UHGV virus genome: UHGV-0098755
Length of the DNA: 64,000 bases
Source: a virus
Reading direction: 5' to 3' (one strand)
The notes below the pieces were generated by a model. It was not told the DNA's origin, made no database searches, and saw nothing but the letters and a program-made list of their open reading frames with translations. Each line of letters starts with the position of its first letter. Within the stretch, counting starts at the first letter, position 1. Below are positions 1 to 30,796 of the stretch, one piece after another. Both the position numbers and the translations under genes were made by a program.

Positions 1-2775
1 GATGGCGCAATGGTATTACGTCGTTCACTTGCTATTGGCACAATTACCGCCGACGAAAATACTAACAACTACGGTTCTCCTACTCCAATGGGAGAAAGAT
101 ATATTGCTTTGGGCGATGCTGCCACTGGTTTAAAATACATTAAGCAGGGTGTTTATGATTTAGTAGGTAATTGGAATTCTGTTGCTTCTATTACTCCTGA
201 CAGTTTCCGTAGTACTCGTAAAGGTATATTTGGTCGTTCCGAGGACCAAGGCGCAACTTGGATAATGCCTGGAACCAACGCCGCGCTTTTATCGGTTCAA
301 ACACAAGCTGATAATAACAATGCTGGAGACGGACAAACCCATATCGGGTACAATTCTGGCGGTAAAATGAACCACTATTTCCGTGGTACAGGTCAGATGA
401 ATATCAATACCCAACAAGGTATGGAAATTAACCCGGGTATTTTGAAATTGGTAACTGGCTCTAATAATGTACAGTTTTATGCTGATGGCACTATTTCTTC
501 TATCCAACCTGTTAAATTAGATAACGAATTATTTTTAAATAATTCTAATAATACCGCAGGCCTTAAATTTGGCGCCCCTAGCAAAGTTGATGGCTCGAGA
601 ACTATCCAGTGGAACGCCGGGACCCGCCCGGGTCAGAACAAAAACTATGTGACCATGAAAGCATGGGGTAACGCATTCGACTCCACTGCCGGTAATCGTG
701 AAACCGTATTTGAATTGTATGACGGCCAGGGCTATCATTTTTGTTCTCAACGTTTAGCACCGACGGGTTCTGAAACTGTTGGTGCTCTTCAATTCAGAAT
801 TTCCGGCGCTTTACGTGTGGGTGGTGGTATTATATCGGCTGGTTCTATTGCTACTGAATCAAGTTTAGTTGCTAATAATGGATTGTCTGTAAACGGACAA
901 GCCAAATTTGGCGGAACAGCAAATGCATTGAGAATTTGGAACGCCGAATATGGCGCTATTTTCCGTCGTTCAGAAACAGCATTGCACATTATTCCTACTC
1001 TTAAAGACCAAGGAGAAAATGGCGAAATAGGTAATCTTCGTCCATTGAGCATCGCACTTCATAACGGTATGGTACAAATGCGCCATTCTGTCACGTTAGG
1101 CGATGATGGCAGAGGTGGCAATATGATTACCGTGGACAATGACAGCAAACTTGTCGTGGTAACTTCTAATGCCAGATTAAGCCCTAATTTCCGCATGCAA
1201 ATAGGTCAGTCATCTTATATTGATGCTGAATGTACTGATGCTGTTCGCCCGGCAGGCGCGGGTTCATTTGCTTCTCAGAATAATGAAAATGTCCGTGCGC
1301 CGTTCTATATGAATATTAATCGCACAGATACAAGTACTTACGTTCCTATTTTAAAACAACGCTATGTTCAAGGAAATAGCTGTTATTCTTTAGGTACTTT
1401 AATAAATGGCGGTAACTTCAGAGTTCATTATCATGAAGGTGGTGATAATGGTTCAACTGGTCCTTTAATTAAAGACTTTGGATGGGAATTTACTCGTTCC
1501 GGTGATTTTATATCTCCTAAGCGTGTTTCTGCTGGTGGTTCAGTTTATTTAGGTACGGATGGTAATATCACTGGCGGTTCATTACCTAACTTTGCTAACC
1601 TGAACACAACTTTAGAACGTAGAGTTAAGGTCGGAACTTGGTCCGGTAGTTCAACTGCAGGATGGTATAAATTTGCTACTGTAACTATGCCACAATCAGT
1701 TTCTACCGTCCAATTTAAGATTATAGGTGGTAATGGATATAATGCCAATTCACCAGAACAGGCTACAATTACTGAAGTAGTTCTTCGTACCAGTAATAAC
1801 AATCCTAAAGGTATTAACGCCACTTTATGGGGGCGCACGGGTAATGGATTTACTAATATAGCAACAATTAATACCTCCGGTGATGATTATGACGTTTATC
1901 TGTATGCTGGGACTTATGCAGACAAACTTATAGTTGAATATGACGCCACAGAAAATACCCGTTATATTTCGGTAATTGGACTTAATGGTGGATATCAAAC
2001 ACCAGTAACAGAATTACCCGCTGGTCATCTGCGCGGTCAAGTGTATATGATGTACTCTGATGCTCAGATACCTTATCCGGTCGGTGCTCCGATTCCGTGG
2101 CCGAGTGATTCAGTTCCTGCTGGATTTGCTTTGATGGAAGGTCAGACCTTTGATAAGTCCGCATATCCAAAGTTAGCTGTTGCATATCCTAGCGGTGTTA
2201 TTCCAGATATGCGCGGGCAAACTATCAAGGGTAAACCAAGTGGTCGTGCTGTTTTGAGCGCTGAGGCAGATGGTGTTAAGGCTCATAGCCATAGTGCATC
2301 GGCTTCAAGTACTGACTTAGGTACTAAAACCACATCAAGTTTCGACTATGGTACTAAGACGACAAGTAGTTTCGACTATGGTACTAAGACCAGTAATAAT
2401 ACTGGTGCTCATACGCATAGTTTGAGCGGTTCCACAAACACCGCCGGTGCGCACAGCCACACAAGCGCTCTTTATGCGGGAAGTAACAACTCTCCTGGTA
2501 CTGGTGCTATAAGAGGATCCGCCGGTTCTGGTAATACGCTTGGAACTTCTTCTTCTGGGGCACATTCGCACTCTATATCTGGTACTGCTGCAAGCGCAGG
2601 CGCTCACGCACATACTGTTGGTATTGGTGCTCATACCCATACAGTTGGTATTGGTGCTCACACCCATTCAGTAGCAATTGGTTCACATGGGCATACAATA
2701 ACTGTAAATAGTACAGGTAATACAGAAAACACGGTTAAAAACATTGCTTTTAACTATATCGTTCGTTTAGCATAA
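1..2775 (+). CDS. 37: Long tail fibre distal subunit gp37, C-terminal ~920 aa; 5' end lies outside window
   Basis: Frame open to window edge; Gly/Ser/Thr/Asn-rich fibre sequence; C-terminal His-x-His repeats (GAHTHT, GAHSHS); followed by gp38 and holin as in T4. Confidence 0.85.
2320..2391 (+). repeat. In-frame 30-bp tandem repeat (about 2.4 copies) encoding [10 protein letters not shown] inside gene 37
   Basis: Copies at 2320-2349 and 2350-2379 plus partial third; copies differ at synonymous sites including TCA vs AGT serine codons. Confidence 0.8.
2611..2691 (+). repeat. In-frame 27-bp tandem repeat x3 encoding H-T-V-G-I-G-A-H-T, His-box repeats of fibre tip
   Basis: catactgttggtattggtgctcatacc / catacagttggtattggtgctcacacc / diverged third copy. 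Confidence 0.8.
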
Positions 2776-2802: not shown

Positions 2803-3354
2803 ATGAAAATATATCATTATTATTTTGACACTAAAGAATTTTACAAAGAAGAAAATTACAAACCGGTTAAAGGTCTTGGTCTTCCCGCTCATTCAACAAT
2901 TAAAAAACCTTTAGAACCTAAAGAAGGATACGCAGTTGTATTTGATGAACGTATTCAGGATTGGATTTATGAAGAAGACCATCGCGGTAAACGGGCTTGG
3001 ACTTTTAATAAAGAAGAAATCTTAATAACTGACATAGGAAGCCCGGTTGGTATAACTTTTGATGAACCCGGCGAATTTGATATATGGACTGATGATGGTT
3101 GGAAAGAAGACGAAACATATAAACGCGTTTTAATTCGTAATAGAAAAATTGAAGAATTATATAAAGAATTCCAAGTATTGAATAATATGATCGAAGCTTC
3201 AGTTGCAAATAAAAAGGAAAAATTCTATTATCAAAACCTTAAACGGTTCTTTGCTCTTTTAGAAAAGCATGAGCATCTAGGTGGTGAATTTCCTAAATGG
3301 CCTGAAAAAGAACGGAAGCCTTGGTATAAGCGTTTATTCAGGAATTACGTATAA
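2803..3354 (+). CDS. 38: Tail fibre assembly chaperone gp38 (T4-type, 183 aa)
   Basis: 183-aa ORF directly after gene 37; N-terminus MKIYHYYFDTKEFYKEENYKPVKG as I recall for T4 gp38. Confidence 0.85.
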   Translation: MKIYHYYFDTKEFYKEENYKPVKGLGLPAHSTIKKPLEPKEGYAVVFDERIQDWIYEEDHRGKRAWTFNKEEILITDIGSPVGITFDEPGEFDIWTDDGWKEDETYKRVLIRNRKIEELYKEFQVLNNMIEASVANKKEKFYYQNLKRFFALLEKHEHLGGEFPKWPEKERKPWYKRLFRNYV

Positions 3355-3357
3355 ATA
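3350..3357 (+). promoter_or_regulatory. Late promoter TATAAATA for holin gene
   Basis: Exact TATAAATA 19 nt upstream of ATG with AAGGAGG SD at 3363-3369. Confidence 0.6.
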
Positions 3358-3375
3358 TCCTTAAAAGGAGGGTCT

Positions 3376-4032
3376 ATGGCAGCACCTAGAATATCATTTT
3401 CGCCCTCTGATATTCTGTTTGGTGTTCTAGATCGCTTGTTCAAAGATAACGCTACCGGGAAAGTTCTTGCTTCCCGGGTAGCTGTCGTAATTCTTTTGTT
3501 TATAATGGCGATTGTTTGGTATAGGGGAGATAGTTTCTTTGAGTACTATAAGCAATCAAAGTATGAAACATACAGTGAAATTATTGAAAAGGAAAGAACT
3601 GCACGCTTTGAATCTGTCGCCCTGGAACAACTCCAGATAGTTCATATATCATCTGAGGCAGACTTTAGTGCGGTGTATTCTTTCCGCCCTAAAAACTTAA
3701 ACTATTTTGTTGATATTATAGCATACGAAGGAAGATTACCTTCAACAATAACTGAAAAATCACTTGGAGGATATCCTGTTGATAAAACTATGGATGAATA
3801 TACAGTTCATTTAAATGGACGTCACTATTATTCCAATTCAAAATTTGCTTTTTTACCAACTAAAAAGCCTACTCCCGAAATAAATTACATGTATAGTTGT
3901 CCATATTTCAATTTGGATAATATCTATGCTGGAACGATAACCATGTACTGGTATAGAAATGATCATATAAGTAATGACCGCCTTGAATCAATATGTGCTC
4001 AGGCGGCCAGAATATTAGGAAGGGCTAAATAA
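3376..4032 (+). CDS. t: Holin (218 aa)
   Basis: 218 aa, N-terminal TM segment, large periplasmic domain; length and sequence as T4 holin. Confidence 0.9.
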   Translation: MAAPRISFSPSDILFGVLDRLFKDNATGKVLASRVAVVILLFIMAIVWYRGDSFFEYYKQSKYETYSEIIEKERTARFESVALEQLQIVHISSEADFSAVYSFRPKNLNYFVDIIAYEGRLPSTITEKSLGGYPVDKTMDEYTVHLNGRHYYSNSKFAFLPTKKPTPEINYMYSCPYFNLDNIYAGTITMYWYRNDHISNDRLESICAQAARILGRAK

Positions 4033-4317: not shown

Positions 4318-4470
4318 TCAATTAGTTGACTTTGTTATAATATCATCAGACACTTGATTTGTAAACTGGTCTGTGTTATTTTCTTCAAAAATTTTTTCTA
4401 CGAATTCCTTGAACGATTCACGTTCCTGAGCTACATTATGCTCGATTACCTTTTCAAGATTATGACTCAT
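4318..4470 (-). CDS. Small ORF (50 aa), start overlaps arn stop (ATGA)
   Basis: Hand-translated: MSHNLEKVIEHNVAQERESFKEF...; below ORF-track size cutoff. Confidence 0.4.
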   Translation of the reverse strand: MSHNLEKVIEHNVAQERESFKEFVEKIFEENNTDQFTNQVSDDIITKSTN

Positions 4471-4745
4471 TCGAAATAATCTTCAATTTCGTAATCATGG
4501 ACATAAATCATTATAGTTTTTAATACATCATCAATACTTTTTCCTGGAGCTGGAATTACGTAAAAATATCCCGCCTTTGAGTTATCTTTATAAGTTCCAA
4601 CCAAGAAATCATTATTTTCAAGATGTAGTTCTTCAACTAATTCATCGACAATTGAGTGGTATAAATTTGGTAGAAACTTATATAGCTTTTCTAGAATATC
4701 AATTTTGATTGTATATTGAACCACAGATTGAGAATCAATAATCAT
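4467..4745 (-). CDS. arn: Anti-restriction nuclease Arn (McrBC inhibitor), 92 aa
   Basis: 92 aa acidic protein at T4 arn position next to asiA. Confidence 0.75.
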   Translation of the reverse strand: MIIDSQSVVQYTIKIDILEKLYKFLPNLYHSIVDELVEELHLENNDFLVGTYKDNSKAGYFYVIPAPGKSIDDVLKTIMIYVHDYEIEDYFE

Positions 4746-6114: not shown

Positions 6115-6124
6115 TATTTATTCC

Positions 6125-16861: not shown

Positions 16862-17131
16862 TTATTTAAAACGAATAGTCGAATCCTTGAAGAATAGTCC
16901 AGAACATACTGTTCCTTCTACTTTCTGCCCAGTAGGTCCAATAGCACGAAATCCAGTATGCTGGAAATCATTTTCAGAGCAACCGAACCAATTATATCCA
17001 GTGATTTCAATATTAGTAAAACCACTTGAAGACAAAACTTTGGTTGCATTATCAGCATCAGTACATCCTATTAAAGACACTGCTAATACTAATGCTGCAA
17101 TAGAACGATTAATATATTTCATAATTTTCAC
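16862..17131 (-). CDS. Lipoprotein (89 aa), 39.1 position
   Basis: Signal peptide with lipobox LIGC. Confidence 0.6.
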   Translation of the reverse strand: MKIMKYINRSIAALVLAVSLIGCTDADNATKVLSSSGFTNIEITGYNWFGCSENDFQHTGFRAIGPTGQKVEGTVCSGLFFKDSTIRFK

Positions 17132-17499
17132 TTAAATTTAATGGCTTGAAGAAGACTAATAACTCTCAAGCGGCTTCTTTCATCTTTAACTGTAAAGGAA
17201 AGAGGGTCACCAGATTTCATAGTGATAGTGCATTCAAAATCAAAATTTTCGGGAACTTCTTCGAAGAAGTCAAATTCTTCAGCATAAATTAGAACATTAC
17301 TCTGAAAACTGTGAAGAATTTTTCCGTCATTTCCAGATGCTGTACTAATCATCGTAACATTATGACCTTTCATATCTTCAACGATAAATTCGCTTGTAGA
17401 TATTACAGCATTAATAGAACCATTCCTATAAATAGCAGACATTAGATATTTCTTTTCTTCGCCTTCGCGAATACGATATTTCTTACCGATTTTAAACAT
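17128..17499 (-). CDS. Hypothetical protein (about 123 aa from ATG at 17499)
   Basis: ORF; track start at 17505 is GTG. Confidence 0.5.
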   Translation of the reverse strand: MFKIGKKYRIREGEEKKYLMSAIYRNGSINAVISTSEFIVEDMKGHNVTMISTASGNDGKILHSFQSNVLIYAEEFDFFEEVPENFDFECTITMKSGDPLSFTVKDERSRLRVISLLQAIKFK

Positions 17500-17501
17500 A
17501 A

Positions 17502-17678
17502 TCACCCTTTAAGTAAGTCGTAAAATCCACCATTCACATGCTTAGGAGCGGAAACTAACCGAATAGCAATCCGATGACAATCAGGACATACATCAGTATC
17601 CCTTTCAGAAATTTTCTTGATTTTTTCGTATTCTTTTGCGCAGTCTTTGGATTGACATTTATAATCATAAAGAGGCAT
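17502..17678 (-). CDS. FmdB-like zinc-ribbon micro-protein (58 aa)
   Basis: Hand-translated MPLYDYKCQSKDCAKEYEK...CPDCHRIAIRLVSAP; two Cys pairs. Confidence 0.5.
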   Translation of the reverse strand: MPLYDYKCQSKDCAKEYEKIKKISERDTDVCPDCHRIAIRLVSAPKHVNGGFYDLLKG

Positions 17679-17680
17679 AA

Positions 17681-18100
17681 TTATTCCTTAAAGTGAGCTT
17701 TCAACATCTGATACAATGACCATGCCTGTTCATTATTTTCAATAGTAACTTTCATTACCGGGAATTCTGTGAAATCTTCTATTTGTTCTTGCTCTTCCTG
17801 CTCTTGTTCTTCAGCAGCCTGATATGGATTTTCAACTTCATCAAAGAACCCAGCTTCGTTAGTAGAGAGCCAGATAAAGTTTTCGTCAAGGATATCACCG
17901 CCGGCACAACGTTTGAGTACACCTATGGATGTCATAATTTTAGTAGGACGCCCAAGATAATCAGCATCTAAAATTTTAAAAGGCTCCATACCTAAACGTC
18001 GTGCATAGATTCCGTTATCAGTATGGTCTTTAATAAAATTTTCTTGAGCTTGTTTATTTTTAAATTGATACCATTTATTAACTTCAAATTTAATAGCCAT
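17681..18100 (-). CDS. Hypothetical acidic protein (139 aa), goF position
   Basis: ORF with [10 protein letters not shown] stretch. Confidence 0.45.
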
Positions 18101-28724: not shown

Positions 28725-29513
<789 letters not shown>

Positions 29514-29570
29514 TCATTTATTGCAGCAAAAACGAATTGTGATAAATATTATTTTTAAGGAGGACAGCGC

Positions 29571-29771
29571 ATGGTACAAAAATTAATGGCACTTGTTAAT
29601 GCCATCAAAGGTAATAAAAAACGTATAGCTTTTACTATTTCTGCTATGATAGGAATTTTACTTTGGAATTTTGTTTTATCGCCAGTTGCTATTGCTCATG
29701 GCGTTAGTATTCCAGTAGTTACTCTTGATACATTCGTAGATTTAGCATTTGCTTTAGTTGGGTTAATTTAA
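29571..29771 (+). CDS. Small membrane protein (66 aa), + strand within a - strand region
   Basis: Strong SD AAGGAGG; hydrophobic; late-promoter-like GATAAATA at 29541-29548. Confidence 0.5.
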   Translation: MVQKLMALVNAIKGNKKRIAFTISAMIGILLWNFVLSPVAIAHGVSIPVVTLDTFVDLAFALVGLI

Positions 29772-30796
29772 ATCTTAGCATATTTAGATAACCGCATTTT
29801 AGCCATTAACCCCTGGGCAATATTATTTTTCATATATTCCATAATTTGTTCAGGGGTTGCACCTTCCTTTCTAATCATATCATTAACATCTTTTGATTTC
29901 CAGGGAGATTTATCCCAAAACATAACCCTTTCTCCTGCATCAACTAATTTAGTCATTCGTTTAATAGTGTCAGGGTGACGAGGTTCATTATCTAAGACCC
30001 ACACTCGTCTATCTTTAAATGGAACAACTTCTAGGTCTAATTGACCACCCGTAATAGCTATACCATTTTCAATAAAAAGTGAATCTATAGGTCCTTCTAG
30101 AACATATACATCACCATCTTTAACCCGTTCGACTCCATAGATTTTTGTTGCCTCAGGATAAGCTTTGATGGTGATATATTTTTGAGGAGCATCTTTCTTT
30201 AATGCACGTCCTTGAAAAGACTCAGCTTTTCCATTAGCATTATAAATTGGAATAACAAGACGAGGCTCAGAAATTTCCTTTTTATATGTTCCCGGTGCTA
30301 TGCTATTAACTAATTTAGGCCATTCGGTTGTAAACCAAAGATATTTCCATTTATCCTTTGGAATACAACGAGCTTTTACATATTTTATAACTGGATGGTC
30401 TTCCACCAGTTTATCTAATCTAACGCATGACGGAAGAGATTTAATTATTTTCTTCTCAGGTTGTTTAGGAAGTTCTTTAGGTTTTTCTACTGGACGACTT
30501 TTACCTTTTTCTTTTCTTATTTCAAAGATATACTCACGATATAAATCAGGTTCAAACTCCTTTAAATATATTCCGATTGGTGCATGATAGTTACAGTTAT
30601 AGCAATGAATATTTCCTTCATTATTATCGCCATAATACCATCCACGGGCTTTATTTTGATCGGTTTTTGAATCTCCACAAACAGGGCATCTAAACCGTAA
30701 TTTAAAAGTTGAACTATTATTTACTTGTGTGAATTTAGGTAAATGAGCTAGCGCACGATATGCAAACTCATTATCAATCCAAGGTATTGATGACAT
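29768..30796 (-). CDS. 61: DNA primase gp61 (342 aa)
   Basis: N-terminal zinc ribbon CPVCGDS...CYNCNYH plus TOPRIM; 342 aa. Confidence 0.9.
   Translation of the reverse strand: MSSIPWIDNEFAYRALAHLPKFTQVNNSSTFKLRFRCPVCGDSKTDQNKARGWYYGDNNEGNIHCYNCNYHAPIGIYLKEFEPDLYREYIFEIRKEKGKSRPVEKPKELPKQPEKKIIKSLPSCVRLDKLVEDHPVIKYVKARCIPKDKWKYLWFTTEWPKLVNSIAPGTYKKEISEPRLVIPIYNANGKAESFQGRALKKDAPQKYITIKAYPEATKIYGVERVKDGDVYVLEGPIDSLFIENGIAITGGQLDLEVVPFKDRRVWVLDNEPRHPDTIKRMTKLVDAGERVMFWDKSPWKSKDVNDMIRKEGATPEQIMEYMKNNIAQGLMAKMRLSKYAKI

Follow-up and report, generated by a model that had tools for sequence, protein, structure and literature searches.

A small phrog_2024 gene lying opposite the early genes of T4-type phages probably encodes a late single-pass membrane protein

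An open reading frame (ORF) of 66 amino acids, placed on the strand opposite to its two early neighbours in a T4-type coliphage genome, is best explained overall as the gene of a late, single-pass inner-membrane protein of the family phrog_2024 that acts at the cell envelope, a reading that we consider likely. That the ORF is a gene, that it is expressed late and that its product resides in a membrane are three propositions that we hold jointly with high confidence. The ORF begins with ATG and occupies positions 29571..29771 (+) of the window, by which we mean the whole 64 kb stretch of DNA that was analysed (64,000 nucleotides), and its predicted product is MVQKLMALVNAIKGNKKRIAFTISAMIGILLWNFVLSPVAIAHGVSIPVVTLDTFVDLAFALVGLI. 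The window derives from a Tequatrovirus, and the 701 bases around the ORF share at least 90% identity with 504 phage records. A preliminary description of this DNA had proposed a late-expressed membrane micro-protein in an otherwise early region, and all the computational tests that were run (selection, synteny, conservation of the ATAAATA motif and membrane topology) point in the same direction. As an object the gene is not new, being already catalogued as a hypothetical protein in hundreds of genomes. What is new here is the evidence for the conservation of its late promoter, the topology of its product together with an invariant core, and its omission from the T4 reference; otherwise, it would be one more small hypothetical membrane protein.

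The ORF is flanked by two genes of the minus strand, dam (28725..29504), which matches the DNA adenine methylase annotated in relatives, and the primase gene 61 (29768..30796), which matches the DNA primase annotated in relatives. The preliminary description had rightly placed a 66-codon plus-strand ORF between them, in a gap given as 260 bp that we measured as 263 bp, but it had inverted both relative orientations. In fact, the ORF is not convergent with dam but divergent from it, their starts facing each other 66 bp apart, and it is not divergent from gene 61 but convergent with it, the stop codons of the two genes overlapping in the TTAA at 29768-29771. The same 4-nt stop overlap is annotated in phages BP32, JEP6, ST0 and IME281 and for the second copy of the gene carried by VR25, and it is also present in the T4 ORF listing. 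Beyond gene 61 are 61.1 and spackle, identified by annotations in relatives, and genes that we take, from their ORF sequences, to be dmd and gene 41. On the other side of the ORF, the segment 29505-29570 is shorter in the window than in T4, with ~44-48 bp missing upstream of the promoter box.

Judging from its pattern of sequence divergence, the ORF is a genuine protein-coding gene under purifying selection. The predicted protein matched the phrog_2024 hidden Markov model with an E value of 8.1e-31, the alignment running from residue 2 to residue 66 and covering all 65 positions of the profile, and divergent subtypes of the protein matched the same profile. The window ORF is a member of this family by its genomic position, its full-length match, its size (63-69 aa in the family) and the invariant residues W-N...P...G...P. 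Between the window and T4, the ORF showed 9 synonymous and 4 non-synonymous differences (dN/dS 0.12); close pairs had dN/dS values of 0.12-0.22, with 0.13 within Mosigvirus, and pN was far below pS in every pair compared. Between genera, pS was saturated (0.55-0.9) and pN reached only 0.25-0.55. These low pN values against saturated pS, together with the residues that are invariant across an alignment of 30 sequences, exclude a chance frame in the spacer.

The idea that the ORF is merely fortuitous, the conserved spacer being non-coding and carrying minus-strand signals for gene 61 and dam, draws on the lack of annotation of the ORF in the T4 reference record and on two signal-like elements found inside it. 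One is a terminator-like hairpin of 11 pairs followed by TTTTTGT (29583-29608, minus strand), which lies within codons 5-13 of the ORF and ~160 nt downstream of the gene 61 stop; the other is a sigma-70-like match (29599..29571, minus strand) that overlaps it. The hairpin probably acts on the early transcript of gene 61 and does not belong to the 66-codon gene, and the two elements together may serve to separate gene 61 from dam. However, the protein is conserved down to 17-30% identity despite diverged DNA, with dN/dS far below 1, the ORF is retained where dam is absent, it has been tandemly duplicated in Gaprivervirus, and the hairpin, identical in the T4 copy, is not conserved in other genera. 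The chance-frame reading, to which we attach almost no credence, is effectively refuted by the selection test and the 30-sequence alignment. The hairpin was also considered as a conserved RNA element and rejected as such, being Tequatrovirus-specific.

The preliminary description had named absence from relatives as fatal to its proposal; we found the ORF conserved, at the same position, in at least six genera. Proteins with at least 80% identity to that of the window occur in 503 records, a number to be compared with the 502 records having a primase of at least 95% identity, and about 500 Tequatrovirus records carry the gene. Homologues with 25-55% identity are found in Mosig-, Dhaka-, Gapriver- and Kanagawa-virus and in JD18-like Klebsiella phages, the named carriers including Mosigvirus ST0, Gaprivervirus VR25, Dhakavirus IME281 and Kanagawavirus IME523, in addition to several metagenome contigs. 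Across the family, the gene sits on the strand opposite to the early genes and tail-to-tail with the 3' end of gene 61, with or without dam. Most of the genomes with these homologues lack dam, their other neighbour being then gene 56, and a T4-like viral contig devoid of dam likewise retains the ORF. Since the ORF occupies the same slot in genomes with and without dam, it travels with the 3' end of gene 61, and the space on the gene 56 side is an insertion hot spot (locus L001, 1705-2265, minus strand; locus L015, 1911-2522; window 29505-29570). An extra gene of 186 aa (phrog_8706, a family with no assigned function) is present between dam and the ORF in BP32-like phages.

Gaprivervirus genomes contain two tandem copies of the family, belonging to different subtypes and separated by 8 nt (1495-1692 and 1701-1901, plus strand, in locus L010; also in L019, L021 and L023). 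Only the first copy is preceded by an ATAAATA box, and the pair resembles a late operon of two genes. Of the two Gaprivervirus subtypes, the second alone has been retained in Dhakavirus and Kanagawavirus. By contrast with all these carriers, no small opposite-strand ORF was found beside the primase gene in Erwinia phage Cronus, JSE, PhiK2046, Aeromonas phage UP87, Acinetobacter phage Abraxas and two cyanophages, the slot being empty in the sampled Roskildevirus, Krischvirus, Slopekvirus-like Klebsiella phage, Aeromonas/Acinetobacter T4-type phages and cyanophages. Because it is missing from several of the T4-type groups sampled, the gene is an accessory gene of one Tevenvirinae branch. A 'holin-like protein' annotated beside the primase gene of cyanophage S-SCSM1 is unrelated, as it is encoded upstream and on the same strand.

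Annotated examples of phrog_2024 include RB32ORF030w (RB51), FDI17_gp087 (ST0) and AVV67_gp031 and gp032 (VR25); none of the members has been characterised, and no function is assigned to the family. Phages ECML-123-2 and Manna have annotated proteins 100% identical to that of the window, whose sequence is also on record for vB_EcoM_F1. Apart from obvious mislabels, all database names in the family are 'hypothetical protein'. The likely mislabels comprise 'DNA packaging ATPase' for 66-aa family members in UPEC01 and SAKp28 and, for short ORFs on the primase side, 'major capsid protein' (54 aa in Roth76 and 155 aa in Cronus); one UniRef entry (OE5505), a homologue of the family, bears the label 'Holin', an unsupported annotation. 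In the T4 records NC_000866 and AF158101, the ORF is intact at 17738..17938 (+) and unannotated (locus L003, 2739-2939), and it is likewise intact and unannotated in Enterobacter phage IME523 (locus L011, 1468-1677), where a perfect TATAAATA precedes it. Since the T4 reference records omit 17738..17938 (+), annotation-based T4 screens miss the ORF. T4 is the reference phage, and the proteomic, CRISPRi and transposon screens that use the NC_000866/AF158101 annotation have probably never scored it. Adding the ORF to the T4 annotation would be a cheap fix and would give studies of late envelope biology in T-even phages, a poorly understood subject, a clean candidate.

Late transcription of the ORF from a conserved late promoter is predicted, with good support from comparison between related loci. 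In T4, early and middle transcripts all run on the strand opposite to that of the ORF and only late ones run either way (PMC2988020), so that a plus-strand gene at this place needs a late promoter. A late-promoter-like box, GATAAATA, lies at 29541-29548 (+) and agrees at seven of eight positions with the T4 consensus TATAAATA, which spans positions -13 to -6 of promoters devoid of a -35 element; the one-mismatch match noted in the preliminary description is thus correct, the only deviation being at -13. Of a list of 50 T4 sites, 32 match the consensus perfectly and 9 carry an A at -13, which is the least conserved position of the late box and one poorly kept in relatives (PMC2988020, PMC1524935). 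The G found at -13 in the window is not among the commonest late-box variants. Placing the box at -13 to -6, transcription is predicted to start at 29554-29557 (+), which would leave a 5' UTR of ~14-17 nt beginning at the Shine-Dalgarno sequence, as is also predicted for holin gene t. Of 21 related loci, 20 have an ATAAATA core ahead of the ATG, at a distance of 16-33 nt (16-23 nt in most of them and 33 nt in the Klebsiella-type lineage); in one relative, locus L007, none was found within 60 nt of the ATG. This exception and the G at -13 are the weak points of the case for a late promoter. The base preceding the core is G, A, C or T depending on the genus, and the flanks are unalignable between genera.

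The Shine-Dalgarno sequence AAGGAGG (29557-29563, plus strand) stands 7 nt before the ATG, not 8 as stated earlier. Its qualification as one of the strongest of the window was justified, AAGGAGG occurring just twice in the 64 kb, both times on the plus strand and before an ATG: once at the 66-codon ORF and once at the ORF starting at 3378, which we take from its sequence to be the holin gene t. A GGAG-type Shine-Dalgarno sequence is found in all related loci. The composite motif ATAAATA-N8-16-AGGAGG-N4-10-ATG had two matches in the window, at t and at the 66-codon ORF, and none in 100 shuffles (0.00 expected).

The motif ATAAATA itself was seen only 6 times on the two strands of the window (3351, 6115, 17428, 27756, 29542 and 54614), whereas dinucleotide-preserving shuffles predicted 39.5 +/- 6.4 copies. 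This depletion, of about 6.5-fold, suggests selection against stray late promoters in the AT-rich early region. Of the five copies other than that of the 66-codon ORF, three precede ORFs that, from their sequences, are presumably t, soc and gene 49. These three genes have late transcripts, and the 66-codon gene would join the few late genes that lie within the early region. Elsewhere in the window, a perfect TATAAATA at 17427-17434 (+) falls inside a minus-strand ORF (17128..17505) and has no ORF downstream, making it a candidate for a pure antisense late promoter. Another box, AATAAATA at 6115-6122 (minus strand), directly abuts the ATG of a minus-strand ORF; transcription starting from it would fall within the coding region, and the box may be either non-functional or the source of an internal or antisense-independent transcript.

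A late antisense transcript in this region was reportedly described by Macdonald and Mosig (EMBO J 1984, 'gene 69'). One might imagine that the late plus-strand RNA is itself the important product, acting as an antisense on the primase mRNA at its 3' end, and that the ORF is incidental. In the window, we found no plus-strand terminator downstream of the ORF, and a late transcript would enter gene 61 in the antisense direction; moreover, certain sites of T4 are transcribed from both strands, though not at the same time (PMC2988020). However, purifying selection on the amino-acid sequence is clear, synonymous sites having reached saturation between genera, and the strong Shine-Dalgarno sequence is retained everywhere. 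In addition, L007 and Roth76, in which the ORF ends short of gene 61, have a GC-rich hairpin placed exactly between the two stops (CTAGGGC...GCCCTAG-like and AGGGGC-TTTG-GCCCCT; ~4470-4500 of locus L007 and ~1662-1690 of locus L012) and would end the transcript ahead of the gene 61 overlap. We consider it very improbable that the RNA is the important product, although it may have an antisense side effect in T4-type genomes. The stop-to-stop hairpins are likely bidirectional terminators, in agreement with converging transcription units.

The protein encoded by the ORF is predicted to cross the membrane once, with its N-terminus in and its C-terminus out. The transmembrane helix was assigned to codons 19-42 (29625..29696, plus strand) on the basis of Kyte-Doolittle hydropathy (means of 1.5-2.05 over the segment), AlphaFold2 modelling and flank charges. 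The AlphaFold2 models, with a pLDDT of 75 using 7 sequences and of 81 using 30, contained helices at residues 2-12, 16-42 (pLDDT 80-88) and 52-63. Residues 1-18, among which there are five Lys/Arg, are basic and adopt an amphipathic helix in the model, residues 43-51 make up a loop with Pro, and residues 52-63 a short helix, one face of which bears Asp53 and Asp57. The preliminary description had proposed two hydrophobic segments: the first was recovered as a full transmembrane helix (16/19-42), but the second (52-63), with 12 residues of which two are Asp, is too short to span the membrane. The orientation derives from the AlphaFold2 model and from the positive-inside rule applied to the flanks of the helix: over the 30 sequences, the mean net charge is +2.9 before the helix and -1.2 after it, with 3-6 Lys/Arg before and 0-1 after.

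The alignment of 30 sequences, with identity down to 17%, also defined a conserved core, W32-N33-x4-P38-x5-G44-x3-P48-x4-D/E53 (codons 32-53, 29664..29729, plus strand). All 30 sequences share W32, N33, P38 and G44, nearly all share P48 and G64, and most have an acidic residue at position 53. The cytoplasmic part of the protein varies between subtypes, the invariant residues being clustered towards the periplasmic side, in that half of the helix and in the loop that follows.

The same region can alternatively be viewed as a Sec signal peptide, cut by signal peptidase I after A40-I41-A42 to free a 24-residue acidic hydrophobic peptide, HGVSIPVVTLDTFVDLAFALVGLI, that would be active in the periplasm or in the outer leaflet. 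Its layout is n-h-c-like, with a basic start, a hydrophobic core and Pro at -5, and small residues occupy -3 and -1 in all three subtypes (AIA before H; AAT before Q or IAA before T; AST before H or LAS before T). However, the hydrophobic core has ~18-24 residues and is modelled within one continuous helix (16-42), whereas typical cleavable signals are shorter (7-15). The invariance of W32 and N33 in this core and the strong conservation of the N-terminal region within subtypes are also unexpected for a disposable signal peptide. Furthermore, the T4 antiholin RI has a similar-looking 'FVLSP...A' segment, which published work reportedly found to be uncleaved. Processing by signal peptidase seems to us rather unlikely, and we favour the intact single-pass protein.

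Our searches for more distant relatives returned the family itself. Searches of Pfam, NCBIfam, PADLOC and PDB sequences gave no match to the 66-residue protein, and among the PHROGs phrog_2024 alone stood above noise. With a profile built from close members, a search of 1.84 billion representatives retrieved 6 proteins, all of them family members or fragments, and a broader profile searched against 5.8 billion retrieved 114 proteins, each 41-73 aa long and none with a fused domain or an informative name. Fold searches with the AlphaFold2 model found only family members in BFVD (Foldseek) and nothing below E = 8 in the PDB, the three-helix model of 66 residues being low in fold information. The family profile detected no paralogue in the window, sp and other envelope genes included. 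A kinship with RI was considered because of a local match between helices (8 of 20 identities, FVLSP included; pairwise E value 0.008) and was rejected as a chance match of two hydrophobic segments, the hhalign probability being 0.4%. The literature search found no paper on the ORF, and we know of no classical T4 lysis or exclusion mutation mapping between dam and 61.

In the explanation that we favour, the gene would be transcribed exclusively late from the gp55-type promoter GATAAATA, with a start around 29554-29557, and efficiently translated thanks to a near-perfect ribosome-binding site, within a cassette resembling that of holin gene t. The basic N-terminal amphipathic helix would lie in the cytoplasm, residues ~19-42 would make the single membrane crossing, and the acidic tail of 24 residues, ending in a short amphipathic helix, would be exposed at the periplasmic face. 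The working part of the protein would be the invariant Trp-Asn...Pro...Gly...Pro...Asp/Glu set, spread over the half of the helix nearer the periplasm and the loop after it. An Asn buried in a single transmembrane helix is well known to drive the association of helices, from which we infer that the protein may act through intramembrane pairing, whether with itself or with a second envelope protein. Its likely effect would be on a late envelope event, for instance the timing or inhibition of lysis, or envelope protection or exclusion. Any specific role is, at best, a tentative proposal. One such proposal, equally speculative, is that phrog_2024 represents an unrecognised late envelope factor whose Trp-Asn helix docks on another membrane protein, such as the holin T/antiholin RI machinery or a host envelope protein, and tunes lysis timing, lysis inhibition or late exclusion, a factor that would have been missed for 60 years with the T4 reference leaving it unannotated.

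A different mode of action would be that of a holin- or viroporin-like pore former, whose oligomers, joined along the polar side of the helix, would depolarise the inner membrane at a late stage of infection and assist or time the lysis driven by holin T. The small size of the protein, a late promoter within the same strong promoter and Shine-Dalgarno design as at t, the mid-membrane Asn (accompanied by an Asp in the helix of the b subtype) and the 'Holin' label, albeit unsupported, of one database homologue are compatible with such a pore. Nevertheless, the protein has no charged hydrophilic C-tail; on the contrary, its C-terminus is hydrophobic (...AFALVGLI), with 0-1 basic residues in 30 of 30 sequences. 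The 30-sequence alignment shows no conserved dual start, the gene is not linked to lysis genes, its neighbours being dam and gene 61, or gene 56 and gene 61 in relatives lacking dam, and no holin family of Pfam, NCBIfam or PHROGs matched it. Moreover, in T4 genetics t alone is known to be necessary for lysis. We consider pore formation unlikely, and prefer a single-pass protein working by pairing at the envelope.

Comparison with known small phage membrane proteins helps to situate the 66-residue protein. Class II holins or pinholins, such as S68 of phage 21, are alike in length (~65-70 aa), in late expression (which is a prediction for the 66-residue protein) and in consisting mostly of hydrophobic segments. 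They differ from it in that the 66-residue protein has one full transmembrane helix and lacks a charged C-tail, a conserved dual start and an adjacent endolysin gene; we found no sequence or profile similarity between the two. The RI antiholin of T4 has a locally similar helix, and both proteins end this helix in a signal-peptide-like manner (SPxxxA), but the periplasmic domain of RI has ~70 residues as opposed to 24. RI is a signal-anchor-release protein, whereas the five N-terminal Lys/Arg of the 66-residue protein argue against its release from the membrane. The T4 superinfection exclusion proteins Imm and Sp are also small phage-encoded envelope proteins, and sp is located 1.2 kb from the ORF, in the same gene block and on the other strand; imm and sp are early genes. 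Finally, the T4 holin T is an unrelated protein of 218 aa with a large periplasmic domain, and its box has T at -13 where that of the 66-codon ORF has G, but the cassette of its gene (3350-3378) has the same layout as that of the ORF: a late box, at 3350 and 18 nt from the ATG, a short AT-rich spacer, AAGGAGG and the ATG, on the plus strand and in or beside early genes.
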